Under the pieces are notes generated by a model that saw only the letters and a program-made list of their open reading frames with translations, was not told where the DNA came from and did no database searches. Below, one piece after another: positions 1 through 56,212 of a stretch of DNA of 64,000 nt. The translations under genes and the position numbers were made by a program. The stretch lies in assembly GCA_965203445.1 (NCBI GenBank), contig OZ241883.1:480001-544000 (forward strand), written 5' to 3'. Source of the DNA: Candidatus Oxydemutator sp. Its GTDB lineage: Bacteria > Pseudomonadota > Gammaproteobacteria > Poriferisulfidales > Oxydemutatoraceae. Within the stretch, counting starts at the first letter, position 1; the number at the start of each line of letters is the position of its first letter.

Positions 1-1779
1 CCAGCCGCATTGTATGCGGAGGAGCACACGGCGCAGATCGAAAGTGACGAAGCACGCAAAAGACAGGATCGGTTCAAAGACGGAAAAACGCATTTGCTCA
101 GTTCCTCGACGACGTTCGAGGTCGGCGTCGACCTCGGTGATTTGGAGGTCGTGTTCCTGCGCAACGTCCCACCGGAACCGTTCAACTATACCCAGCGCGT
201 CGGGCGAGCCGGACGCCGCGAGACACCGGGATTGGCGGTCACCTATTGCCGCCGCAACCCGCACGACCTCTACCACTTCAAGAGTCCGGAGGAACGGGTC
301 ATAAAGGGCAAGGTGCGACCACCACGGTTGCAAATGACGAACATGAAAATCGTGATCCGACACATGGTCGCCGCAGCTTTGTCGACATTCTTTAAGGAGA
401 ATAGTACGCGCTTCGCAAAGGTAGAGGCGTTCGTTGGAAATTGGGCGACCCCCTCCGCCGTTTCCGACTTGAAACGATTCTGCAAAAACAATGCTGAATT
501 AAGGAACACGCTTCGCCAGATCGTGCCGAAGAACATGTACCAGGACACGGGGCTTGTCGGCGACGACTGGATTGACAACGTTGCGGGACCGAAGAGCCGT
601 TTCGCCGATATGGAAGAGGAAGTGTGTGCGGATTACCAAGCAATGAAGACGGCTAAGGACTCTCTTATTGAGCGGCAGCCCCGGGGGTGGACTGAAAAAG
701 TGAAACAGTTGGAAAGTCGGATGGAGACCATCGCCGGCGAACAGACGTTGCAGTTCCTTTCTCGAAAAGCGGTAATCCCAAAATATGGGTTTCCGGTTGA
801 TGTCGTCGAACTCGATACGCGTCCGCAAGATGGCAAGCCGACAGGTGTCTCGCTCCAGCGGGACCTGTCCCAGGCCATTGCCGAATACGCACCGGAAGGA
901 AAGGTCATCGCCAACAAGCTTGAATGGCAGTCCTATGGTATCAAAGCGATCCCTGAAAAAGCATGGCCCGTCCGACACTATGAATATGATGAAGCACGGA
1001 ATTTCAGACAATGGATTGAAGGCGACCCGGGGGCTTCCCCTAATAGCCGGAAATACCTTTCTCCTATATTTGGTTTCGTGACCCAGCTTTTCAAGCAGCC
1101 CAAGAAGCCCCGTGGGCGGGCGCGACGCCTGTACACAACACGACCGTTTTTCCAAGGATTCGGAGGCGATAGCCAGCCCGAAAGCAAGACCATCCTCGGC
1201 GTGCAAGTCACCAAAGCGACGCCGGGAACTCTGGTCATACTCTGCGAAGGCAGGAACAAGAAAGGTTTCTGGATATGCCGTTCTTGCGGTGCCCACATGG
1301 CGGAACCAGCAGACACGCACAATTCCCCCTCGAACTCCACCTGCCGAGGCACACTCGCACGGTTCTCGCTTGGGCACGAATTGGTGACAGATGTCGTGCG
1401 TTTGCAGTTTCCGCAACTGATTGAGGAGTGGCACGCATACTCCGTTGCATACGCCGTTCTACTCGGTGCGGCGGAAACGTTGGATGTTCCGAATACCGAT
1501 CTGAACGTGACAATCACTGGTAGCGGCAGTCGGGATGAGTCCGCGGTAGTGTTGTACGATAACGTTCCCGGTGGAGCCGGACTGGTCGCGCAATTGGAGG
1601 AAGCCAACGTTTTCGAGGAAGTCCTCGAAAACGCACGAAAGCGCGTTCAGGGAAACTGCGGTTGCGATTCCAGTTGCTACGGCTGCCTGCGCAGCTACCG
1701 CAATCAGTTTGCGCACCCGTATCTGCAAAGGCAGACAGCACTGGAATTTCTCTCAAGGCCAGGGTTACCTGGTTTGTGA
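1..1779 (+). CDS. SF2 helicase C-terminal part with DUF1998 Zn-binding domain (DruE/DrmAB/MrfA-like), 5'-truncated by window edge
   Basis: Helicase_C motifs EEHTAQ, SSTTFEVGVDLGDL and YTQRVGRAGRR. C-terminal LYDNVPGGAG and CGCDSSCYGCL are typical of DUF1998. Frame is open from position 1. Confidence 0.85.
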   Translation, partial: PAALYAEEHTAQIESDEARKRQDRFKDGKTHLLSSSTTFEVGVDLGDLEVVFLRNVPPEPFNYTQRVGRAGRRETPGLAVTYCRRNPHDLYHFKSPEERVIKGKVRPPRLQMTNMKIVIRHMVAAALSTFFKENSTRFAKVEAFVGNWATPSAVSDLKRFCKNNAELRNTLRQIVPKNMYQDTGLVGDDWIDNVAGPKSRFADMEEEVCADYQAMKTAKDSLIERQPRGWTEKVKQLESRMETIAGEQTLQFLSRKAVIPKYGFPVDVVELDTRPQDGKPTGVSLQRDLSQAIAEYAPEGKVIANKLEWQSYGIKAIPEKAWPVRHYEYDEARNFRQWIEGDPGASPNSRKYLSPIFGFVTQLFKQPKKPRGRARRLYTTRPFFQGFGGDSQPESKTILGVQVTKATPGTLVILCEGRNKKGFWICRSCGAHMAEPADTHNSPSNSTCRGTLARFSLGHELVTDVVRLQFPQLIEEWHAYSVAYAVLLGAAETLDVPNTDLNVTITGSGSRDESAVVLYDNVPGGAGLVAQLEEANVFEEVLENARKRVQGNCGCDSSCYGCLRSYRNQFAHPYLQRQTALEFLSRPGLPGL

Positions 1780-1931: not shown

Positions 1932-4900
1932 TTATCGGGAGGTGCTCCAGTCGTCGGCGAAGAGTTCGGCTTGTTGCAGGATGTTGTCGGTCGCCGTTTC
2001 CTGCCCGTCGGGCGGGTAGCCGTATTTTTTCAACAGTCGCCGGACGATGTTTCTCAGTCTGGCGCGCACGTTTTCCTTTATCGTCCAGTCTATCGAGGCA
2101 TTCTCCCGCACCCGTTGCACCAGGATTTGTGCGAGTTCCCGCAGGGTCGCATCGCCCAACACCTCCATGGCGCTTTCGTTCATCGCCAGCGCGTCGTAAA
2201 ACGCGACCTCGTCGGGCGACAGCCCCATGCCGCCGGCTCTTTCGTCGGCAGTTTTTATCTCCTTCGCAAGTTCGATCAGTTCCTCGATGACCTGCGCCGT
2301 GGTCAGCAGGTTGTTCCGGTATTTTCTGATCGCCGCGGCCAGCATCTCGGAAAACTTTCTGCTCTGGACGAAGTTCTTTTTCGTCCGGGTTTTTATCTCG
2401 TCGCTCAGGATCTTCTTCAGCAGTTCCAACGCGAGGTTGCGGTGTTTCAGGCCCCGGATCTCGGCCAGGAAGTCGTCGGAAAGAATGGATATGTCCGGCT
2501 TTTTGATGCCGGCGGCGTCGAACACGTCCATCACGCCGTCCGCCACCAGCGCCCGGTCCACTATCTGCCGGATCGCGGTCTCGATCTCGACGCTGCCGCC
2601 GCCGCCACTCCGTGACTCGAACTTGGTCAGGCGCGCTTTTATGGCCTGGAAAAACCCGACGTCCGCCTTTATTTCGAGCGCCTTGGGATGCGGCACCGCA
2701 AGCGCGAACGCCTTGCCGAGCAGCGTCACCTCTTTGACAAACCTTTCCTTGCCGTTCTCCAGGCCGAGGATACGTTCGGCGCCCTCCAGAATCAGCCTCA
2801 TCTTCTCGCCGGTGCCGGCGGCGAAGTATCCGCGGTAGTCGAACTTGTCGAACATCGCGTCGACCACTTCGTGTTTCTCCAGCATCTGCTCGACCGCCCG
2901 TTCCTGCGCGAGCGCCGGCGTCCCGCGCACGTCGTTTCTGGTGTACTCCGCGAGCGCGTGCTTCAAGTCCGACACAATGCCGATGTAGTCCACCACCAGG
3001 CCGCCGGGCTTGTCCTTGAACACCCTGTTGACGCGGGCTATCGCCTGCATCAGGTTGTGGCCGCGCATGATCTTGTCGACGTACATCGTGCTCAGGCACG
3101 GCGCGTCGAAGCCCGTCAGCCACATGTCGCACACGATGACCATTTGCAGCGGATCATCCGGGGCTTTGAAGCGTTCGCCGAGCGCTTTTCTCTCCTGCTT
3201 TGTGGTCACGTGCCTCTGCCACTTGGCGGGGTCGCTCGAGGCAGCGGTCATGACGACCTTTATGCGGCCCTTGTCTCTGGCGTCGTCGTGCCAGCGCGGG
3301 CGCCGCGCGATGATCGCGTCGTAGAGGGCGACCGCGATGCGGCGGCTCGTGGCGACGATCATCGCCTTGCCTTCGACGGCTTCGCGCCTCGCCGCAAAGT
3401 GTTCGAGCAGGTCCTCGACGACCTTCTGTATGCGCTGCTCGTGGCCGACGATGGCCTCCTGCCGCGCCCATTTGGCCTTCGTTTGCTCGGTCGCCGTCGC
3501 CTCCTCGCTTTCGGCGACGCTCTCGATCTCGGCGTCCAGCCGCTCCCGCTCCTCGTCTTTCAAATGCACCTGCACCAGGCGCGACTCGTAGTAGATCGGC
3601 ACGGTCGCCCCGTCCTCGACCGCCTGCTCGACGTCGTACACGTCTATGTAATCGCCGAACACCTTGGGCGTCGAGGCGTCCTCCTTCTCAATCGGCGTGC
3701 CGGTGAAGCCGATGAAGGAGGCGCCGGGCAGCGCGTCTCTCAGGTATTTGGCGAAGCCGTAGTTTGTCCTCACCCCGTCCTTGACAAAGAACGTTCTGGC
3801 GCCGAACCCGTATTGGCTGCGGTGCGCCTCGTCGGCGATGACGACGATGTTTCTCCGTTCCGAGAGCAGCTCGAAAACGTCGCCGCCGTCGTCGGGCAGG
3901 AATTTCTGGATGGTCGAAAACACGACACCGCCGCCCGCGGTTTTCAACAGGCGCTTCAAGTCGGCGCGGCTTTGCGCCTGCTTCGGTTCCTGCCTGAGCA
4001 GGTTTTTGCCGGCGACGAAGGCGCCGAACAACTGGTCGTCCAGATCGTTGCGGTCGGTGATCACGACGATGGTGGGGTTTCCCATCTCGCGGCTGGCCAC
4101 GAGCAACCCGGCGTAGAACACCATGGACAACGACTTGCCGCTGCCCTGCGTGTGCCAGACCACCCCGGCTTTGCGGTCGCCCTCGGGCTGGTCGCGGACG
4201 TCCGGCAGGCCGTACGCCGCCGGCTTTTCCTTTATTTGCCCGCGCCCGCGCGCCGCCCGCAGCGTGGATCGGACGGCCTCCTTCACCGCGTGATACTGAT
4301 GATACGCGGCGATCTTCTTGACCGTCGCAATCGTCGTCTGACCGGTTTGTGCATCGGTAACTTTCTCTCTATCGAAGATCGTAAAGTGGCGGATGAGATC
4401 GAGCAGCACGTCCGGCCTGAGCATTCCCCGGACGAGAGTTTCTATCTGGGGCACGGTCGCGGCGTCTTCCATTCTTCCGTCCACCGTCTTCCACGCCATG
4501 AAACGGTTCCAGCCGGAAGTCAGCGAACCGGCCGCGGCGTTCAGACCGTCCGATGCGACCAGCACCCCGTTGTAGCAGAACAGGCCGGGGATGGTTTGCC
4601 TGTAGGTTTGCAGCTGATCAAACGCCTTGCGCACCGTCGCGTTTTCGTCCGCCGGGTTTTTCAACTCGATGACCGCCAAAGGCAGGCCGTTTATGAAGAG
4701 GACCAGATCGGGGCGCCTGGTTACGTTGTTCTCCGTCACCGTGAACTGGTCGCAGACGACGAGGTCGTTGTTCAACGGCTCCTCGAAATCAATCAAATGT
4801 ACTCTGGCGCCGGCCGTCTCGCCGTTCTTCTGATACTCCTCGGCGACGCCGTCGGTCAACATCCGGTGGAAGGCTTCGTTGCTTGCGGCCAGATTGCGTC

Positions 4901-5123
4901 CGGACAAGGCGATCACCTGGCGCACGGCCTGCTCCCCGACCGCTGCCGGAACCTTCCGATTGAGATTGACGACCGCATCCCGGAGGCGCCCGCGCAGGAC
5001 GACATCGGTGACGTGCTCCCTCTCGGCCTCCTGCCGTTGCCGGGAGAGATGCGAGTAGCCCTGCTCTGTAAGCAGCGCTATCGCGTGCCTTTCGACGTCC
5101 GACTCGTACATGGCGGCGGTCAT
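1932..5123 (-). CDS. hsdR: Type I restriction endonuclease subunit R
   Basis: PD...IELKNP nuclease motif, HTQGSGKS Walker A, DEAH box, MWLTGFDAP and QAIARVNR; 1063 aa. Confidence 0.97.
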   Translation of the reverse strand: MTAAMYESDVERHAIALLTEQGYSHLSRQRQEAEREHVTDVVLRGRLRDAVVNLNRKVPAAVGEQAVRQVIALSGRNLAASNEAFHRMLTDGVAEEYQKNGETAGARVHLIDFEEPLNNDLVVCDQFTVTENNVTRRPDLVLFINGLPLAVIELKNPADENATVRKAFDQLQTYRQTIPGLFCYNGVLVASDGLNAAAGSLTSGWNRFMAWKTVDGRMEDAATVPQIETLVRGMLRPDVLLDLIRHFTIFDREKVTDAQTGQTTIATVKKIAAYHQYHAVKEAVRSTLRAARGRGQIKEKPAAYGLPDVRDQPEGDRKAGVVWHTQGSGKSLSMVFYAGLLVASREMGNPTIVVITDRNDLDDQLFGAFVAGKNLLRQEPKQAQSRADLKRLLKTAGGGVVFSTIQKFLPDDGGDVFELLSERRNIVVIADEAHRSQYGFGARTFFVKDGVRTNYGFAKYLRDALPGASFIGFTGTPIEKEDASTPKVFGDYIDVYDVEQAVEDGATVPIYYESRLVQVHLKDEERERLDAEIESVAESEEATATEQTKAKWARQEAIVGHEQRIQKVVEDLLEHFAARREAVEGKAMIVATSRRIAVALYDAIIARRPRWHDDARDKGRIKVVMTAASSDPAKWQRHVTTKQERKALGERFKAPDDPLQMVIVCDMWLTGFDAPCLSTMYVDKIMRGHNLMQAIARVNRVFKDKPGGLVVDYIGIVSDLKHALAEYTRNDVRGTPALAQERAVEQMLEKHEVVDAMFDKFDYRGYFAAGTGEKMRLILEGAERILGLENGKERFVKEVTLLGKAFALAVPHPKALEIKADVGFFQAIKARLTKFESRSGGGGSVEIETAIRQIVDRALVADGVMDVFDAAGIKKPDISILSDDFLAEIRGLKHRNLALELLKKILSDEIKTRTKKNFVQSRKFSEMLAAAIRKYRNNLLTTAQVIEELIELAKEIKTADERAGGMGLSPDEVAFYDALAMNESAMEVLGDATLRELAQILVQRVRENASIDWTIKENVRARLRNIVRRLLKKYGYPPDGQETATDNILQQAELFADDWSTSR

Positions 5124-5770: not shown

Positions 5771-6538
5771 ATGCTTCACCAGTTCATCCATCAACAGCGC
5801 GTAAAACGCGGGATAACCCAGGAATACCTTGCATCGGCGCTCGATGTTTCGCGCCCGACGTATATCCAGATCGAGCGCGGCAAGCGGGAGCCGACTATAT
5901 CCGAAGCCAGAAAACTCGCGGCAATTTTCGACTTGTCGTTGGAGGCTTTTCTGGCCGAGAGAGAACCGAAGCACGAGATCATCGTCGAGCAGGAGCCGGC
6001 GGGCGGTGCCGACGATCTGCAAATTCGCGTGACCAGAAAAAACCTCGACAAGTGTAAGCAGGTTTTGCTGTACGTGCTGACCAAAGTAGGCGCCAAACCG
6101 AACGTCGGCGAAACGGTGCTGCATAAACTGCTCTACTTCATTGACTTCGACTACTACGAAAAATATGAGGAAAACCTGATGGGCGCAACCTACATCAAGA
6201 ACCATCACGGCCCCACTTCGGTGGAGTTCGCAAAGGTCGTCGGCGACATGCAGAAACAAGGGGAACTGCAAGCCGTAAAAAGCAAACATTTCCAATACCG
6301 GCAGAAAAAATACCTGCCGCTGACCTCGCCCAAACTCGACCTGCTCTCGGCCCGCGAAGCCGCCCACATTGACGGCGTGCTCGCCCGCCTCTCGGACAAG
6401 AACGCCGCCGAGATAGAACATTACTCGCACGGGGACATCCCGTGGCAATCCGCACAACACGGCAAACCGCTTTCCTACGAGAGCGTCTTCTACCGCGACG
6501 AAAAATACTCCGTAAGAAGCCACGACGATGCGCTTTGA
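5771..6538 (+). CDS. XRE HTH + DUF4065 (Panacea/SocA/GepA-like) antitoxin
   Basis: N-terminal TQEYLASALDVSRPTYIQIERG HTH. LHKLLYFIDF, HGP and SHGDIPW are DUF4065 motifs. Confidence 0.85.
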   Translation: MLHQFIHQQRVKRGITQEYLASALDVSRPTYIQIERGKREPTISEARKLAAIFDLSLEAFLAEREPKHEIIVEQEPAGGADDLQIRVTRKNLDKCKQVLLYVLTKVGAKPNVGETVLHKLLYFIDFDYYEKYEENLMGATYIKNHHGPTSVEFAKVVGDMQKQGELQAVKSKHFQYRQKKYLPLTSPKLDLLSAREAAHIDGVLARLSDKNAAEIEHYSHGDIPWQSAQHGKPLSYESVFYRDEKYSVRSHDDAL

Positions 6539-6582
6539 TGGGGTGGCGGAGTTTCAGGTTTGGCTTTGTGCGGCTGGCAACC

Positions 6583-7359
6583 ATGATGACATTGATCAGG
6601 CAATTTTGGGATAGGTTCATAATTCCCCTAATTATGGGAGATAGGCCACACAGAAATAACGTTGAATCGAAGCCAAGCCGCAAACCATATGGCCCGTCAC
6701 GCTTCGCTGATTTATTGCAAGCCTATACGGGGTCTTTGGAAAAATCTGATGGTGAGCCAAAGACAGCAGGTGAGTTAATCTCGGAACTCACTGATGGAGC
6801 AAACTTAGTTGATGGAAAACATACTTGCGAATACGCCGATGACAACAAGCACGACATTGAATGCATGAAGAAGTGTTGTGATGCTGAGATAAAGACTATG
6901 GAAATAATTGGGCTGGTTGCAGCGCCATACTATTTCCATCGAGTGGCAGTGCTCTCCCGAAAAATAAAAAACTATCGCCAAGAAGTTTATTACTGTGAAA
7001 CTTACATCCGATTAGTTGAAAACTATTACGCCGAACATGGAACGAAGGGCATAGCCGATGTAAGAAAAGGCCCGCGTTTCCAAGCGATAGTTAATCGCCT
7101 TCCCAAAGCAAAAGAGCTGTTGGCCAAAAAGCGCCCGCGCCACCCGATGCCCGCCTTCGTCAGACAGGCCCTGCAAAGCCACAACCTGATGGACACTTAC
7201 AATCAGCGCCCGGCCTATCAGCGAAACGATTATCTCGGCTGGATCAACGCCGCCAAGCGCGCCAAGACGAAAGAAAAGCGGCTGCGGCAGATGTTGGACG
7301 AGCTGAGGGCAGGCGGCATCTATATGAAAATGAAACACCCGCCATCGTCGAAACGCTAA
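6583..7359 (+). CDS. Hypothetical protein with C-terminal YdeI/OmdA-like domain (start could be 6634)
   Basis: C-terminal RHPMPAFVRQAL...PAYQRNDYLGWINAAKRAKTKEKRLRQMLDEL resembles YdeI/OmdA. The N-terminal part is AT-richer and unrecognised. Confidence 0.6.
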   Translation: MMTLIRQFWDRFIIPLIMGDRPHRNNVESKPSRKPYGPSRFADLLQAYTGSLEKSDGEPKTAGELISELTDGANLVDGKHTCEYADDNKHDIECMKKCCDAEIKTMEIIGLVAAPYYFHRVAVLSRKIKNYRQEVYYCETYIRLVENYYAEHGTKGIADVRKGPRFQAIVNRLPKAKELLAKKRPRHPMPAFVRQALQSHNLMDTYNQRPAYQRNDYLGWINAAKRAKTKEKRLRQMLDELRAGGIYMKMKHPPSSKR

Positions 7360-7402
7360 CGGGAACCTCATATTACCTACCAAGATTCCTGGCGAAACAA
7401 AA

Positions 7403-7483
7403 TCAACTCAACAGACGATAGGTGCGTTTGCGGTTCACCACCAGCCCTTCGGCAACCAGCATCTCGTGCAGCATCAGATACCC
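7403..7483 (-). pseudogene. IS3-family transposase OrfB fragment
   Basis: Translates to GYLMLHEMLVAEGLVVNRKRTYRLL, matching the GYRRL...EG..VNHKRVYRL segment of IS3 OrfB. Confidence 0.6.
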
Positions 7484-7537
7484 TTAGTGTTGAAACTTGG
7501 CATTCTCTCTCTCCAATTGCCTTAGGGGATAGGTCAA

Positions 7538-10500
7538 TCAGTCATTTCGCTTGGCGACAGCGGTAGAGGCTGATGGATGGTTGACCTCCGAGCTAACAGG
7601 GGCAGGTAAGATCCCCAATCTATCAATAATTTTCTGTCGATCCCTATAGTTAATAGTATGCGTACGAGAATGTCCGACTATTTCAAAGTCTAAGATTCTC
7701 CTTGCTATTACAGAGAAGTCCTTTTTATTTCTCCTTTCAGCAATAGATTCTATTTGTAAATTTTTGCTGTACCACATCAATATTCCATGTTTTATGATAA
7801 AAGAAGCTGGAGTATTCCTCTTATCACATACTGCTTCGACAATATTTATTAACTTATCTGAACCTAAGGAATGTACTATTTTGTAGAGTACTCCATAAAT
7901 AAGAAGAAAATTTATATTCCAAAAAATAATCCTCGATACTTTTTCTAATTCTTTCCGGCTTGGTCTTTTCTTTTTGCTCTCCGCGAATATTTCTAATCTA
8001 TCGGAAATAAATTTCACCAACTCTTCTTGCTGATATTCTTCTCTTATTAATTCAAAAAATGATGATAAAAACCTCAATTGAATATCCATTGCCTTCTCAA
8101 ATGTTTCTTTAAGATATTCTTTTTCAAGCGAGCCAGCACGATTCTTTATAATCTGTCCCATAACCTCCGCCGTTTTGATGCCTTTTCTTAACTCATTTTC
8201 AAACTCATCTTCCACTTCGCCACTTTCAAAACCTTTTTCCTCCATCTCTTTCGCTTCTTCAATGACATCTTGAGACTTTAGTTGATCATGTCTGGTTCTT
8301 TCTGGCGTTTGATCCGTGGGCAGAGCGGCTGTGACTATATCATTAGCGTGTTTATCAAAAAAATTAAGTTCTTCTTTGCCTAATGATGCTGGCTTATAGT
8401 TCTTAAATATATCGTCAGCGTTAATAAAGGCTTTCTTTAAGACTTGAATATTTTTAGAGTGATGAAATACAAATACCGCAATATAAGCATTTTCATTTGT
8501 ATGAAGATTACTGATAATTCTGCTAATGCTTTTCTCACACTCATTCAAATGCTCTGCTATATATCTAGCAGCAAAAAAATAGTACAAATATAGATAACAA
8601 AAAGAGTAGTTCCCAAGGCTATCTCTACATAATATTTGTGTTCTCTGTAAATTTTTTAGTAGGGTATCTTCTTTCACGGGGAAATTATACTTCTGTAAAT
8701 AATCTCTCATAAAATTCCGATAATCATTCTGTGATACTTCTCGTTTCCTATTTTTAAAAAAATGAAAGGCAAATACAGTTAGAAAATTGATATAAGTGTC
8801 TATTTCATCGTTTCCTATTCCTTGTTTCCGCAACGCACAATATATTAGCGCTTGGTAACAATACCCTTGTGATGTGATTTCCTCGTTTAGTGGTTTAAGT
8901 GTTTCATAAGTACAAATCGCCGATAAAATAAAGAAAGGATACGCTGGCATTATTCCACTGCCTAGAATCTTGCCCAAAATGGAGTCCACTAATTCTGTTG
9001 TTTTATCAATATTCTCATAATGATCATTCATGCCACCGCTATCCTGACCTGCTAAATCTGTCCATCTGCCAATTAACTCACTCCTCAAAGATGGCTTTAA
9101 TTCCTCAATCTGAAAATGAGGGAATGACCTCGTCAGGCTTTCATCTTTCAGATTCAAGCTGAAAATATCATCAACTATGATTATTCTATTTTTGTACAAA
9201 GATAACCGATTAATATGTTTTTCTTTGTTTGTGGCCAAATGAAAATCATCAATAATAGGAACGATTCTGTTTGCGCCAATCTCATCAATTGAAGCAGCGT
9301 TGTACTGCTTCTTAAAAGCAGCGGCTATCCTGTTTTCTACTACTCCAGCAAGACGCTTATTTTCATCATGAACGTAAACAGGTACTAACCCTTTTTCTCT
9401 CAATACTGTGAATAGTTTTTTGCACAAAGTAGTTTTTCCTGATTGATTCTCTCCAGCAATCAACACGGCAGAATATTCTGTGATGTTCTTTATTAGGACC
9501 TCAGAACTAATATACTCTCTCTTATCTTTTGAACGATCATACTTTGATAATGTCGGATAAATGAAAATATCGTCCAAGCGTAGTGTTTCTTTGCCAGAGT
9601 GAGCGCGTGTCAATAGTTCCGCGCTGCCTAAAAAATCTTGGAAACTATCTTTAATTACTAGTTGTTTGCATTTGTTCTCACTCACAATAACTTTCTTCAA
9701 CTCTTCATAAACAGAATGCCATGCGGTGTCAGAAGTTTCAAAACTCGAAACAGGCTTTCCATCTTTGGGCAAGGCTAACAACTCGAAAATATCACCATCA
9801 TCTTTCCAGCCACATTCTTTTAGAATTATTGGCACGACTGAAATACCCTTTTTATTTTTGAGCTCAATGGCTCGTTTCTTCTCATTAATACACTCGTCCG
9901 AGGCAAGAAACTCTGCTGATATAAATAGACAAATAATATCTGCCTGCTCGAGATTATTATGTATATGATCTCGAAATATCGCACCGGGTAATATTTTTCT
10001 GTCGTACCAATCTTCAATTAATCCCTTTTGCTTAAGTGGATCAATATGCTTAGTAAACTTCTCAATATCAGCTTCATCCTCATGGCAATAGCTGATAAAT
10101 AGTTTTAACTTTTGAGTTTCACTCATAAAATTTCTCCTTTGTTTGTCTTTTCGTCTGACCCTAACTTTGGCGTCCATCAATTTTGGTAACAGGGTGTCTC
10201 GTAGGTTTTCAAGTGCATAAATGTGGCAGGAATTGGAGGTAATTCTTTCGTCAATAGACTTTATGTTGTCTTGAAATTTTTGAATTAAATCAGAAGGTGG
10301 CAAGACGATTTCGATATTCCCGAAATCATTTTTGCTTATGGAACCGAATACCGTTCCTTCTTGATCAAATTGTCTGATTTCACCCATCAGTGATTTTGTC
10401 TTGTAGTAGGTGTAACTATAGAAATCTTTATTCTTCTTGTATCGCAGGGAGGCTACACCTCGGCCTATGCAGCATTTTTCTTGTGCCATGTTTAATTCAC

Positions 10501-11605
10501 CAACCGGGGCGCGGACGCTGATCAGCGTATCATATTTTTCCGCAAGTCTTTTAGGTTCGGTAGTATAGACTCGGTTTTTCGGAAAACGAAAGCCAAAATC
10601 CGCATTCCCTTGAAATAGAGGAGTGCCTTGTCTTACCTCATTATAAGATTTTCCAGGCGGAGATTGTCCCATTGTAAGATTAAATTCGCCAGACAATGCG
10701 CTGGTATCCCACCTCTCATCCGCTTCCTCGACAAACCATTGGCGGAAGAGGGTTTGGGCTAGGTTCTCGAGGGTTTTGTTCTGGCGGTGGAGCAGGTCTA
10801 TTTTGTCGTCGAGGGATGAGAGTACTTGGGCGATGGCTTTTTGTTCGGGGAGCGGGGGCAGAAGAATCTGTAAATTTTCAATATCGGACGGTCTTAATGA
10901 CGGGTAGGCAGATGTTGCCCCTTCTGCTATCGAATCAAGTTTTTCTACCGTGTCATTAGATGTTAAGAAGAAATAAATAAACATGGGTTCCGCTTTCCTC
11001 TTGTCTGTTTCAATAACTGAAAATCCAGTTGACACGACAAGGTTTGCCGGAGGGTTTTTTATGAAGCCATAATGGCGCTGAATAGGTCTCACTGTTGAAT
11101 AAATTATGTCATGGTTTTTTACCAACCGTTTTGCCCTACTCGGCGCGTCCGGTAGTTCAAATGTTTGGTAAGATTCTGTCCTTCCTTCACATATCGAGCC
11201 CGTATCCAAGTATCGGATTTTGATATGTTCATAGTTCTTATCTACGCTCCGTTGATTAGATTTGACGATCTTCCCCAACTTCACCTCCCGCCAGCCTGCC
11301 AACTCCGTCTTTTCCTGCAACACCACGTATTTTTTCCTGATGTTATCTTTGAAATCTTCGGGGATGTCTTCCCATACGAGAAGTTGGACGGTAAAGGGCA
11401 GATTGCTTTCCACGAAGGCCTCTTTTGCGTTGGCGACTTCCATGTCCGTCGCATTCCAGACAACCAAGTCAAGATCCGAAGCAGGATCGGCTTTCCACTT
11501 CACGCGGGAACCATAGGCCCATACCGTTTTATCGGTCAGGTAAGTGCCCAACAGTTCGCGCAACAGGCGCAAGTGCCTGTTTTCAAGGTCTATCAAGCGT
11601 TCCAT
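7538..11605 (-). CDS. hsdS: Fusion ORF: MNT nucleotidyltransferase + HsdS (2 TRDs) + TIR + STAND-type P-loop NTPase
   Basis: aa 1-97: YGSRVKWKADPASDLDL (GSX10DXD). HsdS conserved helices PPLPEQKAIAQVLSSLDDKI and LRDTLLPKLM. From M494: LFISYCHED...WYDRKILPG...SDECINE (TIR), then GENQSGKTT Walker A and IIDDF Walker B. Confidence 0.85.
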   Translation of the reverse strand: MERLIDLENRHLRLLRELLGTYLTDKTVWAYGSRVKWKADPASDLDLVVWNATDMEVANAKEAFVESNLPFTVQLLVWEDIPEDFKDNIRKKYVVLQEKTELAGWREVKLGKIVKSNQRSVDKNYEHIKIRYLDTGSICEGRTESYQTFELPDAPSRAKRLVKNHDIIYSTVRPIQRHYGFIKNPPANLVVSTGFSVIETDKRKAEPMFIYFFLTSNDTVEKLDSIAEGATSAYPSLRPSDIENLQILLPPLPEQKAIAQVLSSLDDKIDLLHRQNKTLENLAQTLFRQWFVEEADERWDTSALSGEFNLTMGQSPPGKSYNEVRQGTPLFQGNADFGFRFPKNRVYTTEPKRLAEKYDTLISVRAPVGELNMAQEKCCIGRGVASLRYKKNKDFYSYTYYKTKSLMGEIRQFDQEGTVFGSISKNDFGNIEIVLPPSDLIQKFQDNIKSIDERITSNSCHIYALENLRDTLLPKLMDAKVRVRRKDKQRRNFMSETQKLKLFISYCHEDEADIEKFTKHIDPLKQKGLIEDWYDRKILPGAIFRDHIHNNLEQADIICLFISAEFLASDECINEKKRAIELKNKKGISVVPIILKECGWKDDGDIFELLALPKDGKPVSSFETSDTAWHSVYEELKKVIVSENKCKQLVIKDSFQDFLGSAELLTRAHSGKETLRLDDIFIYPTLSKYDRSKDKREYISSEVLIKNITEYSAVLIAGENQSGKTTLCKKLFTVLREKGLVPVYVHDENKRLAGVVENRIAAAFKKQYNAASIDEIGANRIVPIIDDFHLATNKEKHINRLSLYKNRIIIVDDIFSLNLKDESLTRSFPHFQIEELKPSLRSELIGRWTDLAGQDSGGMNDHYENIDKTTELVDSILGKILGSGIMPAYPFFILSAICTYETLKPLNEEITSQGYCYQALIYCALRKQGIGNDEIDTYINFLTVFAFHFFKNRKREVSQNDYRNFMRDYLQKYNFPVKEDTLLKNLQRTQILCRDSLGNYSFCYLYLYYFFAARYIAEHLNECEKSISRIISNLHTNENAYIAVFVFHHSKNIQVLKKAFINADDIFKNYKPASLGKEELNFFDKHANDIVTAALPTDQTPERTRHDQLKSQDVIEEAKEMEEKGFESGEVEDEFENELRKGIKTAEVMGQIIKNRAGSLEKEYLKETFEKAMDIQLRFLSSFFELIREEYQQEELVKFISDRLEIFAESKKKRPSRKELEKVSRIIFWNINFLLIYGVLYKIVHSLGSDKLINIVEAVCDKRNTPASFIIKHGILMWYSKNLQIESIAERRNKKDFSVIARRILDFEIVGHSRTHTINYRDRQKIIDRLGILPAPVSSEVNHPSASTAVAKRND
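10124..10140 (-). promoter_or_regulatory. Internal Shine-Dalgarno and ATG for a stand-alone TIR-STAND protein (7538-10126, 862 aa)
   Basis: Minus strand reads AAAGGAGAAATTTT-ATG; the ATG at 10126 is in frame with the fusion. Confidence 0.7.
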
Positions 11606-12021
11606 TCTTCACCTGTCATGGCTTCGTAAAGATCAATAGCGTCCGCAATGAAATCGGGGACAAGCTCCAGGGTTGCGTTTGCCTTCGCTTCATCATGCTT
11701 ATAGCTGGTATCGTTTCTTTTGTCGGTGTATTGAAGCCAGGCTTCCGCGTCATTTATTACCCGGCTTTCAAATCCCGACCGGAATAGGGATTTCGGCCTT
11801 ACATCTCGCAGACCGGAAACCCCTTCTTCCTGAAGATACTTTTTCAGGTGTTTGTGTGCCATATCGAAGCAGACTTCAAAGCGCTGAATGCAGGACTCTC
11901 GGAATTTGTCCCGGTCGGAATCCCGCAACTCCGGCCGGTTCGGGCATTCCAGCCATGCCTCATGGCCTTCTTGAAGCAGAGCCAAGGCTTTTTTCAGTCT
12001 TTCATAGTTTATCTCGCTCAT
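11593..12021 (-). CDS. HEPN-like nucleotidyltransferase substrate-binding protein (HI0074 family), copy 2
   Basis: ESCIQRFEVCFDMAHKHLKKYL, PKSLFR and RNDTSYKH; overlaps the start of the MNT-HsdS ORF. Confidence 0.85.
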   Translation of the reverse strand: MSEINYERLKKALALLQEGHEAWLECPNRPELRDSDRDKFRESCIQRFEVCFDMAHKHLKKYLQEEGVSGLRDVRPKSLFRSGFESRVINDAEAWLQYTDKRNDTSYKHDEAKANATLELVPDFIADAIDLYEAMTGEEWNA

Positions 12022-12075
12022 GCTTCCACCTCCCGCCAGCCTTCCCGCCTCGGTTTTCCCTGCGATGCTGTGTCT

Positions 12076-12411
12076 TTATTTCTGGTTTTTAAGCTCATCT
12101 TTTGTGAACAGGGTCTTGTTGCAATCTTCAATGCGTTCTTTCAGGGGCCGATAGCTGATCGTCTGCCAGGCGGTGACGTCGACTTTGTACGGCAGGCTGC
12201 TTTCCAGGAAAAGTGTATACAGCCTGCGAACGGCGGCTTCGTCCACGTTCCCGTATATCACCAAGTCAATATCGGAGTGGCTTTTACGGGTTCCGTCCGC
12301 GCGGGAACCGAACAGCGCCACCCTTTCGGCACCGGGTGCGCCCTGGTTGATGATGGATTTTATCTTTTGTAGTTGAGACCGGCTCAACCCGTGATCAAGC
12401 GCCGTCCGCAT
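12076..12411 (-). CDS. Minimal nucleotidyltransferase (MNT) antitoxin
   Basis: LFGSRADGTRKSHSDIDL (GSX10DXD) and LPYKVDV. Confidence 0.88.
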   Translation of the reverse strand: MRTALDHGLSRSQLQKIKSIINQGAPGAERVALFGSRADGTRKSHSDIDLVIYGNVDEAAVRRLYTLFLESSLPYKVDVTAWQTISYRPLKERIEDCNKTLFTKDELKNQK

Positions 12412-12832
12412 GGATGTCTTCCTCCGCCAGTTTTTCGTATAGCTCATCGAAGCAGAGCAGGTATTTTTCGCCTATCTGTTCTATCACCGTCTCGAATCTC
12501 TTGAAGTTGTAGGTGTGGCTCATTTCATTGCGGGCGTCCAGCAGGTTCATCCACTCTTCCCCGCGCTCGATGAGTTTTGCGGCGACCGCCTCTTTTATCA
12601 CGGCTCTCGGCGTAATTTGCGCAAACACCACGTTCTGGCTCTCCAGATAGTCTTTCATCGTTTTCCAGGAGAGTTCGGTGCAGTATTCAAAACGATGCAC
12701 CATGCCCTCCCTGCCCAGTTGATCCAGTTTGTTTTCATGGTGCAGTTCATTGGCCTCCTGCAACAGAAAGAAGGCTCTTTTGAAATTGGCGAAACGGTAT
12801 TGCCAGCGCTGTTTTTCCTGCTGGATGGTCAC
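12395..12832 (-). CDS. HEPN-like nucleotidyltransferase substrate-binding protein (HI0074 family), copy 1
   Basis: RWQYRFANF, GMVHRFEYCTELSWK, TPRAVIK and RNEMSHTY (RX4HXY). GTG start overlaps the upstream TGA. Confidence 0.88.
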   Translation of the reverse strand: MTIQQEKQRWQYRFANFKRAFFLLQEANELHHENKLDQLGREGMVHRFEYCTELSWKTMKDYLESQNVVFAQITPRAVIKEAVAAKLIERGEEWMNLLDARNEMSHTYNFKRFETVIEQIGEKYLLCFDELYEKLAEEDIHADGA

Positions 12833-13818
12833 TTGTACTTTCCGCTCAACAGCAATACGATCAGGCCGATCATCTGTTCTTTGTCCCCCGGTTTGGATTC
12901 GGCAATCAGCAAAGTCAACGCGGTCAGGGTCTCCGGCGTGATTCTTTCCCGAAAGCGGAACCCCGCCTTTTGCAGAAACCAGATAAAACAAAAGGCCCCG
13001 GTGCGCTTGTTGCCGTCGTTAAACGGATGGTTTTTTATCGTGAAGTAAAGCAGATGGGCGGCTTTTTCCTCTATGCTCGGATAGGCGTCTTGACTGAAAG
13101 CGGATTGCAATACACTGGCCAAAATCGCCTCCATGCTGCCTTGTGTTTTTTCCTGGGCGAACAGTTCCGTCGCCTCGTCTTTCCGCAGTAGTTCCACCTT
13201 GAGTGTGGCAATCGCCGCGTACAAGTCTTCCGACTGAATGGCCAGCGTTTTTTTGCTCAACCCCTTTTGCGGGAACATTTGCCGGTCATAGGATTCCAAA
13301 GAAAACCAGACACCAGCAAAAGTTTTGATCAGACCCAGAACGTCGCTTGTCTTCAGACCGGTGTTGCCGACGGAAATTTTTTTGATGTCTTCTACGGTCT
13401 GTAAAAACTTTGCATAATTCGTGCCGATGCGTTTTCTGTTGATGGTGTAGCCCTGGAGCAAATGCCGCTTCAGGGTCTTGGTCGCCCAAATGCGGAACTG
13501 TGTGGCCTGCTTGGAATCTACGCGGTAGCCAACCGAGAGAATGAGATCCAAGTTGTAGTATTCAATTTCGCGTGATATTTGCCGATTTCCTTCCTTTTGA
13601 ACTGTTGCAATTTTTGCAACAGTTGCCTCGGCTTCCAGCTCACCAGACTGAAATACATTCTTGATATGGCGTGAAATAACCGATTTATCTCTGCCGAATA
13701 ATTCGGCAATCTGGCTCAGATTGCCCCAGACGGTGTTGCCGTCCACGTCGCCGCGAAACTCTATCCGCCCGCTTCTGGCCTGGTAAATGACCATCTTTTC
13801 CCGCCGTTTATTTTTCAT
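12829..13818 (-). CDS. RhuM-family DNA-binding domain + Fic/Doc domain protein
   Basis: IAELFGRDKSVISRHIKNVF, YYNLDLILSVGYRV and QFRIWAT (RhuM); HPFNDGNKRTG (Fic/Doc). Confidence 0.92.
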   Translation of the reverse strand: MKNKRREKMVIYQARSGRIEFRGDVDGNTVWGNLSQIAELFGRDKSVISRHIKNVFQSGELEAEATVAKIATVQKEGNRQISREIEYYNLDLILSVGYRVDSKQATQFRIWATKTLKRHLLQGYTINRKRIGTNYAKFLQTVEDIKKISVGNTGLKTSDVLGLIKTFAGVWFSLESYDRQMFPQKGLSKKTLAIQSEDLYAAIATLKVELLRKDEATELFAQEKTQGSMEAILASVLQSAFSQDAYPSIEEKAAHLLYFTIKNHPFNDGNKRTGAFCFIWFLQKAGFRFRERITPETLTALTLLIAESKPGDKEQMIGLIVLLLSGKYK

Positions 13819-15370
13819 GGCCAATTTTTCCCAGGTCAATTTTGTCCAGGTTCGCCAATATGCGTTTGTTCAGCGTTTTCTCTTCTTTTATCTGCGCCTC
13901 GAACTCGGCCTTCAATTCGGCGAACCGCTCGCCGAAGTCGAAGTCGTCTTCCTCGTCGGGCAGGCCGACGTAGCGCCCCGGGCTCAGCACGTAGTCCAGC
14001 TCCTTGACTTTCTCTATCGGCGCCGCGTTGCAGAAGCCGGCGACGTCCTCGTAGTTTCCGTCCTCCTTGCGCCACCGGTGGTAGGTGTCGGCGATCCTGG
14101 CGATGTCCTCGTCGGAAAACTCGCGCGTGCGCCGGTTGATCAGGTGCCCCAGTTCGCCCGCGTCTATGAACAGGATTTCGCCGGCGCGTTTGCGGTCGCC
14201 GTTGTAGCCGTGCCTTTTGTTCGAGACGAACCACAGGCAGGCGGGGATCTGGGTGTTCAGAAACAGCTTGGCCGGCAGGTTGACGATGCAATCCACGAGG
14301 CCCGCGTCTATGATGTTTTTGCGGATGACGTCCTCGTTGGACGACTTGGAGGTCAGCGAGCCCTTGGACAGTACGAAACCGGCCGCGCCCTTCGGCGAGA
14401 GGTGGTGGATAAAATGCTGCACCCAGGCGAAGTTGGCGTTGCCGCGCGGCGGCGCGCCGTATTTCCAGCGCCCGTCCTCGCGCAACTGTTCGCCGCTCCA
14501 GTCGCTGTCGTTGAACGGCGGATTGGCGAGAATGAAATCCGCCTTCAGGTCGGGGTGGGCGTCGCGCAGAAACGAGCCTTCCGCGTTCCACCGCACCCGC
14601 GAGCCATCTATGCGGCGGATGGCCAGGTTCATCCGGCAAAGCCGGTAGGTGGTCTGATTGCTTTCCTGGCCGTAGATGGAAATGTCGTCGACCTCGCCCT
14701 GGTGCGCCTTGATGAATTTCTCGCTCGAGACGAACATGCCGCCGCTGCCGCAGCACGGGTCGAAAACCCGCCCCCGATACGGCTCTATCATCTCCACCAG
14801 CAGTCTGACGATGGAGGCCGGAGTGTAAAACTGCCCGCCTTTTTTGCCTTCGGCCAACGCGAACTGGCCGAGGAAATACTCATAGATTTTTCCGAGAACG
14901 TCCTTTGATTTTGCGGGGGCGCCGCCGAGAGCGACGTCGCCGAACAGATCCATCAGTCCGCCGAGGGTCGCGGCGCCGACGTTGGGCCTGGAAAACCCTT
15001 TCGGCAGGATGCCCTTGAGGCCCTGGTTTTCCCTTTCTATGGCCTCCATCGCCTCGTCCAATACCGCGCCGATATTCGTTTGTTTCGACTGCGAATGCAG
15101 TGCTTTCCACCTGGCCTCGGGCGGCACCCAGAACTCGTTTTCCGCATGGTATTCGTCCCGCTCTTCGGGATCGGCGTATCGCTCGTTTTTCAGTTCCTCG
15201 TAACGGGCCTCGAAAGAGTCCGATATGTATTTGAGAAACAGCAGGCCGAGCGCGACGTGCTTGTAGTCCGCCGCGTCCATGTTTTTGCGCAGCTTGTCCG
15301 CCGCCTTGAACAGCGTGGCCTCAAGGCTCCCCGTTTTTGCGGTCTTATTCTTTGGCACGGGTTGTTTCAT
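13808..15370 (-). CDS. hsdM: Type I R-M methyltransferase subunit M
   Basis: AADKLR, GGQFYTP, DPCCGSGGMF and ANPPFN. Confidence 0.97.
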   Translation of the reverse strand: MKQPVPKNKTAKTGSLEATLFKAADKLRKNMDAADYKHVALGLLFLKYISDSFEARYEELKNERYADPEERDEYHAENEFWVPPEARWKALHSQSKQTNIGAVLDEAMEAIERENQGLKGILPKGFSRPNVGAATLGGLMDLFGDVALGGAPAKSKDVLGKIYEYFLGQFALAEGKKGGQFYTPASIVRLLVEMIEPYRGRVFDPCCGSGGMFVSSEKFIKAHQGEVDDISIYGQESNQTTYRLCRMNLAIRRIDGSRVRWNAEGSFLRDAHPDLKADFILANPPFNDSDWSGEQLREDGRWKYGAPPRGNANFAWVQHFIHHLSPKGAAGFVLSKGSLTSKSSNEDVIRKNIIDAGLVDCIVNLPAKLFLNTQIPACLWFVSNKRHGYNGDRKRAGEILFIDAGELGHLINRRTREFSDEDIARIADTYHRWRKEDGNYEDVAGFCNAAPIEKVKELDYVLSPGRYVGLPDEEDDFDFGERFAELKAEFEAQIKEEKTLNKRILANLDKIDLGKIGHEK

Positions 15371-15726: not shown

Positions 15727-15918
15727 ATGAAATACAAAATCATACTGACGGCCTCCGAGGAGGGATACAGCGTTTCCTGCCCTGAACTTCCCGGGTGCTG
15801 GTCGCAAGGCACGACGGAAGAAGAAGCCATCGAGAATATAAACGAGGCGATTCAAGACTATCTGGCGGCCGTTGCCGCGTCCGCCGAGGGACGGGATGTC
15901 CCCTCTGAACAATTATGA
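15727..15918 (+). CDS. HicB-family antitoxin (no HicA visible)
   Basis: EEGYSVSCPELPGCWSQGTTEEEAIENINEAI. Confidence 0.88.
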   Translation: MKYKIILTASEEGYSVSCPELPGCWSQGTTEEEAIENINEAIQDYLAAVAASAEGRDVPSEQL

Positions 15919-17018
15919 ATGAACATTTTTTGCAGTCCATGAAGATCGAGAATTTCCGCGGGATCAAATACGCGGAAATTAACGATCTGGCGCGAGTCAA
16001 TCTGTTTTGCGGCAAAAACAATTATGGCAAAACTTCGATTTTGGAATCGTTGTTCCTGCTAAGCGGTATTTCGAACCCGGAATTGATGGTCAGGCTTCAA
16101 ACCTGGAGAGGGCAAACGCTTAGTACGGCTGTTGACTGGAAGAGCTGCTTCCACAATTACAATCATAAGAAAGCAATTATGCTCTCCGGGAAGCAGCAGC
16201 AGGGAAAGAGAAAACTTACTATCTCTCCGATGTCTGACCATCTGCCCATCGCGTATGGCCCAGGCACCCCGGCGGTTGCGGGAAGCGGCAGGCCCATTAC
16301 CCAAGCTCGGGCTGAGACCTCTGCCATAGAGAACGCACCCACGGGACTTCGATATGATTTTACCGTTGATGGCCGGAACTATCAGGCAACGATCAGCCAG
16401 GCGATTGGCCAAGAGGGGATGGGCCAAATAAACTGGAATAAACCGCCCGGGTACGAAGAGCGATTAGCAAGTGTTTTTTCATTACCAACGAAAAAATACA
16501 ACCCTGCCTTTGTTGACAAAATGCTCCAGGCAAAGCGCAAAGACATACTCATAAAGGCACTGCAATTTGTGAACCCTGAAGTCCGGGACGTTCAGATGAG
16601 CGCGACGGGAGTTCTCTCCGCCGATACAGGGCTCGATTATTTTCTGCCCGTTGACTTGCTGGGCAGCGGCACTGGTAATGTTACCAACATAATTTCCAGC
16701 ATTGACGGGGCCGAGGGTGGTTTGTTAATGATGGACGGAATCGAGCGCGGGCTTCATGTCTCCGCCATCAAACCTGTATGGGGAATGATTCTGGAACATT
16801 CCGCCGCGTGCGACACCCAGATATTTGCGACCACCCACAGCAAGGACGTTATCAAAGCTTTGACGGCAGTATCGAACGAGAAACTGCTTTCAGATGATGA
16901 CGGTAATGAAGTCGCATGTTTCGCGCTGGAAAAATTGGACTCCGATGAGACAAAGGCATATAAATACTCCGTTGAAGACTTGATAAAATCCGAGGAAGCC
17001 AACGTAGATATTCGATAG
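15915..17018 (+). CDS. ABC-type AAA_15/AAA_21 ATPase with degenerate Walker B
   Basis: IENFRGI, GKNNYGKTS, LMMDGIERGLH and FATTHS; ATGA overlap with the hicB-like gene. Confidence 0.8.
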   Translation: MNEHFLQSMKIENFRGIKYAEINDLARVNLFCGKNNYGKTSILESLFLLSGISNPELMVRLQTWRGQTLSTAVDWKSCFHNYNHKKAIMLSGKQQQGKRKLTISPMSDHLPIAYGPGTPAVAGSGRPITQARAETSAIENAPTGLRYDFTVDGRNYQATISQAIGQEGMGQINWNKPPGYEERLASVFSLPTKKYNPAFVDKMLQAKRKDILIKALQFVNPEVRDVQMSATGVLSADTGLDYFLPVDLLGSGTGNVTNIISSIDGAEGGLLMMDGIERGLHVSAIKPVWGMILEHSAACDTQIFATTHSKDVIKALTAVSNEKLLSDDDGNEVACFALEKLDSDETKAYKYSVEDLIKSEEANVDIR

Positions 17019-56136: not shown

Positions 56137-56212
56137 TGGTGGAGCCGAGGGGATTTGAACCCCTGACCTCGACAATGCGAATGTCGCGCTCTCCCGGCTG
56201 AGCTACGGCCCC
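56137..56212 (-). tRNA. tRNA-Ala (anticodon CGC)
   Basis: GGGGCCGTAGCTCAG...CGACA-TTCGCAT-TGTCG...GGTTCAAATCC...CTCCACCA; 76 nt with G3:U70. Confidence 0.96.

Follow-up and report, generated by a model that had tools for sequence, protein, structure and literature searches.

Operons for Type I restriction-modification (R-M) that carry accessory defence or toxin-antitoxin genes are well described, PrrC-EcoPrrI being a studied case (Makarova 2013, PMC3632139), and hsd operons of this kind have been described as layering immunity and suicide (10.1101/2023.04.06.535777, PMC3632139). Ronin consists of hsdS, hsdM and the 61-amino-acid (aa) RonA, and its triggers are Ocr, ArdA and Aop1; ronA is reported there as always linked to hsd genes (10.1101/2023.04.06.535777). 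Here we analyse a stretch of 64,000 nucleotides (nt) of Candidatus Oxydemutator sp. (assembly GCA_965203445.1, contig OZ241883.1, positions 480,001 to 544,000), referred to as a whole as the window, in which the hsdS gene of a Type I operon runs without a stop into the gene of a TIR-STAND protein. We consider it likely that this arrangement arose by the recent in-frame joining of hsdS to a translationally coupled, horizontally acquired, AT-rich TIR-NLR cassette.

Judged by analogy, PrrC-EcoPrrI and Ronin are the nearest precedents in terms of logic. In both, as in the window, an abortive-infection-type effector gene is placed inside an hsd operon, next to hsdS. The effectors themselves differ, PrrC being an ABC-ATPase/HEPN anticodon nuclease, RonA a 61-aa membrane protein and the window effector a TIR-NLR. 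Moreover, PrrC and RonA are separate polypeptides, unlike the window fusion, and their dependence on R-M was demonstrated experimentally, whereas such a dependence is hypothetical for the window effector. A TIR-NLR joins PrrC, Ronin and the rlo genes as abortive-infection genes embedded in Type I loci.

A further point of comparison is DS-8 (DefensePredictor; NCBIfam NF053861), a validated single-protein system in which mutations of the effector or of the NTPase abolish defence (10.1101/2025.01.08.631726). The window protein has the NTPase and the C-terminal region in common with DS-8, and carries a TIR domain where DS-8 has an N-terminal metallophosphatase. The NCBIfam DS8_antiphage profile matched aa 621-1332 at its positions 278-994 of 994 (E 1.5e-142). 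Equivalog identity was rejected, as the score of 476.5 bits lies under the cut-off of 790 and the effector is a different one; on these profile matches, the window TIR-STAND is a paralogue of DS-8 with a swapped effector.

Domain content of the 1355-aa frame

The frame extends from 11605 to 7538 on the minus strand, begins with an ATG and encodes 1355 aa with 0 internal stops. Its domains are, in this order, a minimal nucleotidyltransferase (MNT), an HsdS with two target recognition domains (TRDs), a linker of 10 residues, a TIR domain, a P-loop STAND and a helical tail. The initial annotation, made from the letters of the sequence, had proposed a four-part stop-free frame of 1355 aa, and this is borne out, the strand, which it did not mention, being the minus strand. 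Its domain calls were also correct, with profile matches for HsdS, TIR and NTPase and a borderline one in Pfam for the MNT. The following features of the frame, including an internal ribosome-binding site (RBS), are referred to below.

11306..11563, minus strand: N-terminal MNT domain of the frame (aa 15-100); Pfam Polbeta and NTP_transf_2 just below their cut-offs, NCBIfam MntA E 2.1e-5
10145..11296, minus strand: two-TRD HsdS (aa 104-487); Pfam Methylase_S, PADLOC Specificity_I
10127..10156, minus strand: linker RRKDKQRRNF (aa 484-493), ten codons without a stop, equivalent to what is an untranslated leader in the TIR-STAND gene
10140-10134, minus strand: RBS AAAGGAG inside the linker codons, with a 7-nt spacer before the ATG
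10126-10124, minus strand: ATG of M494, native start of TIR-STAND, to which residue 1 of the relative P0002 aligns
9647..10102, minus strand: TIR domain (aa 502-653) with the family-invariant E575; TIR_2, ThsB-like profile and family alignment
9131..9493, minus strand: core of the P-loop NTPase (aa 705-825), Walker A being aa 718-726 and the Walker B region aa 783-789
8570..8740, minus strand: nSTAND_NTPase4 signature (aa 956-1012); 42.3 bits with Pfam PF24406 (cut-off 27)
7541..8569, minus strand: all-helical C-terminal region (aa 1013-1355), presumed sensor; PDC-S60 and DS8 matches, low-confidence helical model
7538-7540, minus strand: stop codon of the frame

In the MNT part, Pfam Polbeta reached 26.2 bits on aa 26-100 against a cut-off of 26.9, which is borderline, NTP_transf_2 reached 20.8 bits against 21, and NCBIfam MntA 24.3 bits against 60. 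The MNT motif GSRVKWKADPASDLDLVV occupies aa 32-49, and the domain is also present in relatives. Within HsdS, Pfam Methylase_S was found in two stretches (80.3 bits), and the PADLOC model Specificity_I (E 2e-97) aligned aa 104-487 with profile positions 3-401 of 403; since one single model spans nearly the whole profile, the HsdS part is complete, with both TRDs. The conserved C-terminal motif of HsdS, LLPKLMDAKVRV (aa 472-483), ends at V483, and L369, P371 and L373 of the C-terminal motif are invariant in an alignment of 34 rows.

The TIR domain matched Pfam TIR_2 on aa 503-600 (50.7 bits, cut-off 28) and a ThsB-like profile on aa 502-653 (E 1e-36). A retained Glu had been pointed out initially in the sequence SDECINE (aa 569-575). 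This stands for the second Glu, E575 (E82 of P0241), which is invariant in 27 of the 27 aligned family members, and not for the first one, which is not invariant in the same alignment. By analogy with other bacterial TIRs, we take E575 to be the catalytic Glu. In the NTPase, the G, K and T of the Walker A motif GENQSGKTT (aa 718-726) are invariant among these 27 sequences, and the first D of the Walker B region PIIDDFH (aa 783-789) is conserved in at least 90% of the aligned members. The PADLOC profile of PDC-S60, a candidate single-gene defence system, matched aa 631-1332 (E 2.7e-71).

An AlphaFold2 model of the TIR-STAND part had a mean pLDDT of 62.6, being good in the TIR, P-loop and winged-helix regions and poor in the C-terminus; over model residues 10-160 the TIR fold reached pLDDT 80-89. 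Fold comparison of the model gave matches to NLRC4, NLRP9, RPP1, NLRP3, NOD2 and Avs4 (E 2e-6 to 1e-4), with global TM-scores of 0.1-0.19. The order of N-terminal effector, P-loop STAND and helical sensor is the one found in Avs/NLR-like STANDs and in plant TIR-NLRs such as RPP1, with no detectable sequence similarity of the window protein to solved STANDs. At the domain level, 'NLR-like' is a fair label for the TIR-STAND part. A sequence search of the PDB retrieved no close solved relative, only a weak TIR match (Cat1, E 2e-4); its P-loop matches to designed pentatricopeptide repeats were judged spurious. A prediction of the complex between HsdS and the C-terminal region of TIR-STAND (residues 520-862) scored 0.00 and, being without controls, bears neither way on binding.

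The hsdS/TIR-STAND junction

The stretch that joins HsdS to the TIR domain retains the character of a leader. Six of its ten codons are one substitution away from a stop, and its +1 frame terminates at a TGA overlapping the ATG of M494 (ATGA). The AAAGGAG, the 7-nt spacer and the ATG at 10126 are all intact, as the initial annotation had remarked, and therefore a long and a short product are both possible. The TIR-STAND half had also been noticed as AT-rich, and its GC content is indeed 0.352, against 0.613 for the whole window. GC drops stepwise along the operon from hsdM (0.596) through MNT (0.502) and HsdS (0.432) to TIR-STAND; that of hsdR is 0.621.

A junction of this kind could be an artefact of sequencing or assembly, with a stop missed or an indel introduced in the deposited genome. 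The +1 frame of the leader lends itself to this, because its TGA lies over the ATG and a single-base indel would separate the genes, and the junction region is AT-rich with short A-runs. Against it, run X2 provides an independently assembled Logan contig of 9223 nt (depth 32.7) that agrees with the deposited sequence throughout 9900-10400, without any difference or indel, and in run X3, from the same sample, positions 10043-10250 are covered with 0 differences. Both are contigs, not raw reads, and come from one sample, probably the source of the assembly, so that they are not independent biological support; their identity at the junction does argue against an assembly slip, and they are identical and stop-free over 10110-10200, the segment that the initial annotation had singled out for verification. 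The stop-free hsdS/TIR-STAND junction is confirmed as real in the DNA, with no consensus error, and an artefact is very improbable.

How the junction was formed is approached through run X1, a metagenome from another study. A contig of 778 nt in this run is about 91% identical over 10167-10398 and diverges from there; past 10167 its hsdS continues for 8 codons up to its own TGA, which overlaps an ATG, according to a manual reading of the contig's loose end. A fragment of 151 nt from the same run (depth 2) matches 10054-10162, that is, the 5′ end of TIR-STAND together with a 36-nt leader, and differs at 3 of the 109 positions. Unlike, GC-rich DNA precedes this leader, in a fragment too small and shallow to tell whether this copy is fused. 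The two breakpoints of homology, 10167 and 10162, are at most 6 nt apart and both fall within the codons for A-K-V-R-V. Given how small the second fragment is, they hint that a cassette bearing its own leader recombined with the conserved 3′ terminus of hsdS. Alternatively, the junction may have originated by a point change of the former stop or by an indel of 1 nt. A frameshift origin was considered in its own right: the +1 frame ending in ATGA fits the sequence, but the contigs show no indel. An exact-pattern scan for the 24-nt leader plus start gave 0 matches in metagenome contigs and 0 in viral contigs.

Regulatory signals were scanned over 7300-12200. Nine promoter-like sites were found against 10.6 +/- 3.9 expected, without enrichment, and the one promoter-like site on the minus strand upstream of the junction (10303-10276) carries no evidential weight. 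All six terminator-like sites of this interval are on the plus strand, and none lies on the coding strand between hsdS and TIR-STAND.

Relatives, the recurrent gene pair and the readings of the fusion

A search with aa 494-1355 gave 757 matches. The 120 listed include the window's own protein; the other 119 are 814-877 aa long and carry TIR plus nSTAND_NTPase4; Methylase_S was found in 0 of those 119 (best 120 of 757 matches). The closest relative among the matches listed, P0002, has 861 aa and is 85% identical, and M494 is considered the native start because P0002 aligns there from its first residue. By alignment, aa 494-1355 are a full-length member of a large stand-alone TIR-nSTAND4 family of about 860 aa, found in many bacterial and archaeal phyla. 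The window protein shares TIR_2 and nSTAND_NTPase4 with hundreds of such stand-alone proteins of the PDC-S60/TIR-nSTAND4 kind and, unlike every other member examined, its gene is read in frame from hsdS. The NTPase-sensor chassis of nSTAND4 proteins also carries other N-terminal effectors, namely NTase-conflict (L060, P0299), SIR2 (P0307), Mrr_cat (P0294) and a PGAP1-like hydrolase (P0296), as well as RelA_SpoT plus TIR (P0427) and the metallophosphatase of DS-8; L060, L062 and L069 are family loci with this interchangeable-effector chassis. A plasmid search yielded 18 records, all below 60% identity, with hsdS in neither of the two contexts read, and a phage search gave 0 matches. No paper mentioning PDC-S60 was found in the literature, and we know of no experimental work on the TIR-nSTAND4 (PDC-S60-like) subfamily.

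A second HsdS-TIR-STAND fusion was sought in three ways. A junction-spanning search was scored on aa 290-700 only, with candidate lengths of 745-2372 aa, which leaves out ordinary HsdS, and with two-half matches ranking first; among the best 120 of its 396 matches, PF01420 and TIR occur together in the window's own protein and in no other. Aa 161-1355 were also compared exhaustively by phmmer with 1.84 billion cluster representatives; of the 57,200 matches, the best 150 each match one side and none both: the HsdS matches reach query positions up to 328 (proteins of 582 aa or less), and the TIR-STAND matches start from position 319 on. Four of the TIR-STAND-side proteins exceed 1000 aa (P0427, P0307, P0379 and P0404). 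A scan covering the first three, which are RelA_SpoT plus TIR, SIR2 and multi-TIR proteins, found no HsdS in them, and P0404, of 1921 aa, is multi-TIR by its matched stretches. Finally, 160 family loci were surveyed, 80 from species-representative genomes and 80 metagenomic. In 0 of the 160 is the frame open from HsdS into the TIR-STAND gene; upstream of the gene, a stop closes the frame after a few codons in all but L022 (89 codons, with no HsdS match) and three loci with another effector domain. As background, Methylase_S was searched in 301 genomes of the phylum, with 452 matches, and 2 of the 150 listed lie in frames longer than 700 aa, both of them ordinary nuclease-methylase-TRD single-chain enzymes. 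As far as these databases show, the HsdS-TIR-STAND fusion is unique among all relatives examined. In the literature, titles and abstracts gave no description of an HsdS-TIR-STAND protein or of an hsdS/TIR-STAND gene pair.

The MNT-HsdS half is of a common type. Fusions of MNT and HsdS of 462-556 aa make up 39 of the 120 HsdS relatives listed (our own count), in agreement with the initial annotation, which knew of MNT-HsdS fusions but of no such four-part architecture. The best of them are 61-65% identical over 98% of the query, which was the N-terminal part. P0121 and P0122 (487 aa), with this identity to the N-terminal 490 aa of the window frame, end 2 residues past the C-terminal motif, whereas the window frame runs for 872 further residues; in the window, an HEPN partner gene stands directly upstream of MNT-HsdS. 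Eighteen HsdS relatives were inspected, and they end 1-12 residues past the equivalent of V483, 14 of the 18 within 3. Such a stop after KVRV in close relatives had been named initially as one observation that would speak against a guard. The window HsdS departs from this termination after the motif. Among about 120 close HsdS relatives, a large C-terminal addition was found in none except P0242, a metagenome singleton (1 member, 1 contig) of 967 aa and of the same MNT-HsdS lineage, with 50% identity over aa 2-483. P0242 leaves HsdS stop-free like the window protein and reads from LLPKLMSSEIKV into a different downstream partner, which begins with internal Met residues and comprises 7 TPR repeats and a weak HNH match (E 5e-4, short of the cut-off) but neither TIR nor STAND.

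An addition of this size might be harmful, as a step of decay in which one of the two systems is lost: it could cripple HsdS, in which the C-terminal helix is paired with the central conserved one and makes contact with HsdM, or block the oligomerisation of TIR-STAND. The closeness of the end of HsdS to its motif in the relatives, with P0242 as the sole exception among about 120, favours this reading. Also, damage to HsdS would not be buffered, because the hsdS of the frame is the only full-length one adjoining hsdM and hsdR in the genome. A harmful junction is unlikely, however, as hsdM, hsdS, hsdR and TIR-STAND are free of frameshifts and internal stops, the internal start can still supply free TIR-STAND, and the N-terminal MNT shows that HsdS tolerates appended domains. 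The fact that circularly permuted HsdS is functional, implying exposed termini, counts against it as well.

The separate genes are found side by side elsewhere. In 6 of the 160 loci (L017, L031, L033, L035, L072 and L156), from several phyla, hsdS lies directly upstream on the same strand and keeps its stop. In these six the RBS is encoded in the tail of HsdS (for example ...VRVRKE, ...VRVEKE or ...VRVKKE), and the stop is placed 0-23 nt before the TIR-STAND start or overlaps it (ATGA in L072); in several, hsdM is upstream and hsdR downstream, which is the order of the window. Compared at the sequence level, the window is this abutting arrangement minus the stop. In the five abutting genomic loci checked (L017, L031, L033, L035 and L072), the GC of TIR-STAND is lower than that of hsdS and of the whole locus, as exemplified by L072 (0.353 against 0.506): the TIR-nSTAND4 family is AT-rich regardless of its host.

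Any Type I gene is present in the fetched flanks of at least 17 of the 160 family loci, a count that is a lower bound, the flanks exceeding 1200 nt upstream in 99 of the 160. Since only 17 of the 160 loci are near Type I genes, the TIR-STAND sensor cannot generally depend on HsdS, and the obligate, family-wide hsd linkage of the PrrC/Ronin type is not found in the TIR-nSTAND4 family. The abutting state was mapped on a FastTree phylogeny of 66 full-length members, 16 of the 82 candidates having been dropped as partial or bearing another N-terminus. It requires 4 changes, at least 3 of them forced by well-supported branches, and the label is not clustered beyond chance (190 of 500 shuffles were as low). 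From its scattered tree positions, the abutting arrangement therefore arose or persisted in several lineages.

Taking together that (i) HsdS relatives stop after the motif, (ii) the six abutting loci keep the stop, and (iii) TIR-STAND starts where its stand-alone relatives start, we favour a recent loss of the hsdS stop or in-frame junction, which the initial annotation had given as its main alternative. In the proposed sequence of events, an AT-rich TIR-STAND copy would have been acquired recently, directly behind hsdS. Recombination at the hsdS 3′ end, or else loss of the stop, would have put the cassette in frame with hsdS, and therefore the former leader would be translated as the linker of 10 residues. 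Ribosomes from the MNT ATG would read through to give a protein of 156.7 kDa, and those initiating at M494 would probably give the native TIR-STAND of 99.8 kDa. By likeness to bacterial NLR-like proteins, the helical C-terminus would bind a phage cue; the NTPase would drive a nucleotide-dependent oligomerisation that clusters the TIR domains, and the clustered TIRs would consume NAD+ or make a signal, leading to abortive infection. This action would need no attachment to HsdS, because about 90% of the relatives' loci have no hsd gene in the fetched flanks. The fusion itself is probably a young accident, neutral or mildly costly.

Several observations weigh against a recent accidental joining. 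None of 40 relatives' genomes contains the junction DNA (9700-10700), and no second strain of the species or genus carries the locus, which leaves the young age of the junction presumptive. A search for sequencing runs retrieved no RNA run. P0427, with RelA_SpoT ahead of TIR and nSTAND4, indicates that members of the family can tolerate additional sequence N-terminal to the TIR. By its own stop-free exit, P0242 suggests that read-through fusions of HsdS may be more than isolated accidents; P0242 and the window may reflect the ease of fusion between tightly coupled genes, or an HsdS C-terminus that tolerates or profits from defence modules. Both halves of the window protein are fully intact, without signs of decay, and selection on the fused form is thus possible. 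The 3-4 separate tree positions of the abutting arrangement, finally, hint at more than chance co-location.

These points lead to the question of whether the fusion is functional and selected, with TIR-STAND tethered to HsdS/HsdM as a guard that would fire abortive infection when Ocr or ArdA block R-M, in a covalent form of the PrrC-EcoPrrI/Ronin logic. Effectors held by Type I complexes have precedents in the published accounts of Ronin (10.1101/2023.04.06.535777) and PrrC (PMC3632139). The tight coupling of hsdS and TIR-STAND in 6 of 160 loci, over several phyla and at least 3 tree positions, the intactness of the HsdS and TIR-STAND halves, and P0242 as a second C-terminal fusion of HsdS to a defence-like protein also argue for such a guard. 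We nevertheless hold it improbable: three large searches and 160 loci yielded no second case of the fusion, Type I genes are near only 17 of these loci, unlike the constant hsd linkage of ronA, the linker is a retained leader with its RBS and not an evolved linker, and the abutting label shows no clustering on the tree beyond chance. A guard deliberately mounted on the R-M complex, as put forward in the initial annotation, therefore finds no comparative support, the fusion being unique and TIR-STAND starting where its stand-alone relatives do. What survives of that proposal, in weaker form, is that TIR-STAND is recurrently placed directly behind hsdS, in a manner that recalls PrrC and Ronin and keeps a functional link conceivable. 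In a wider version, the TIR-nSTAND4 genes behind hsdS would in general be R-M guards whose helical sensor reads the state of HsdS/HsdM or bound anti-restriction proteins, the window (and P0242) being 'integrated' versions comparable to the integrated decoys of plant NLRs; this, too, we hold improbable.

Should the fused protein be made and work, it would be the first NLR-like sensor built into an R-M specificity subunit, and a natural handle for testing whether TIR-NLRs guard Type I complexes; were the guard reading true, one polypeptide would both specify restriction and fire abortive infection when restriction is blocked. Returning to the favoured in-frame joining, the more solid result is a modest one: in several phyla, Type I operons have repeatedly received a widespread, uncharacterised TIR-nSTAND4 defence gene immediately after hsdS and in translational coupling with it, tightly enough for a single event to weld both genes. 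The case also warns that a striking multi-domain architecture known from one example needs to be compared with its relatives first.

The operon and its surroundings

The remaining genes of the operon are as follows.

13808..15370, minus strand: hsdM, Type I methyltransferase of 520 aa, first gene of the operon; Pfam N6_Mtase 4.6e-104, HsdM_N 1.2e-26
12829..13839, minus strand: RhuM/Fic-family gene; Pfam Virulence_RhuM 5.8e-24, Fic 2.4e-13
12395..12991, minus strand: HEPN-like gene; Pfam NTase_sub_bind 9.1e-37 on aa 66-189, true start probably later than the listed TTG
12076..12447, minus strand: stand-alone MNT; Pfam Polbeta 1.5e-12
11593..12021, minus strand: second HEPN-like gene; Pfam NTase_sub_bind 3.8e-25, with a 13-nt overlap with the start of the 1355-aa frame
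1932..5123, minus strand: hsdR, Type I restriction subunit of 1063 aa; Pfam HSDR_N, SWI2_SNF2, T1RH-like_C

The order on the minus strand is hsdM, RhuM/Fic, HEPN-like, MNT, HEPN-like, the 1355-aa frame and hsdR. Both hsdM and hsdR are intact, with full domain sets, and on the same strand as the 1355-aa frame. Because of its 13-nt overlap with that frame, the second HEPN-like gene is taken to pair with the MNT domain fused to HsdS, and the interval 11593-13839 contains two HEPN/MNT modules in one operon. The locus is a Type I operon rich in accessory genes for defence and toxin-antitoxin functions.

Between TIR-STAND and hsdR, on the plus strand (5771-7359), an HTH_3 plus SocA/Panacea antitoxin-like gene of 255 aa overlaps an open reading frame of 305 aa. 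The latter has a C-terminal OmdA domain, and the two genes may form a toxin-antitoxin pair of the Panacea type. At the edge of the window (10-1779, plus strand), a helicase C-terminal domain occurs together with a MrfA Zn-binding (MZB) domain in a gene cut by the window start, and just past hsdM (15915-17018, plus strand) there is an AAA_15/AAA_21 ATPase of 367 aa; with the helicase/MZB and ATPase genes as neighbours, the hsd operon therefore lies within a wider defence island. The sole other Methylase_S match in the genome, outside the window (G000:C1:57048-57506), is in a frame of 239 aa and may be a half-size or orphan specificity gene. The genome is a single contig of 2,378,814 bp, in which the bacterial small-subunit ribosomal RNA model matched at full length with 1554 bits. 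Within the window, the sole Rfam match at gathering score is a tRNA gene on the minus strand, at 56140-56212.

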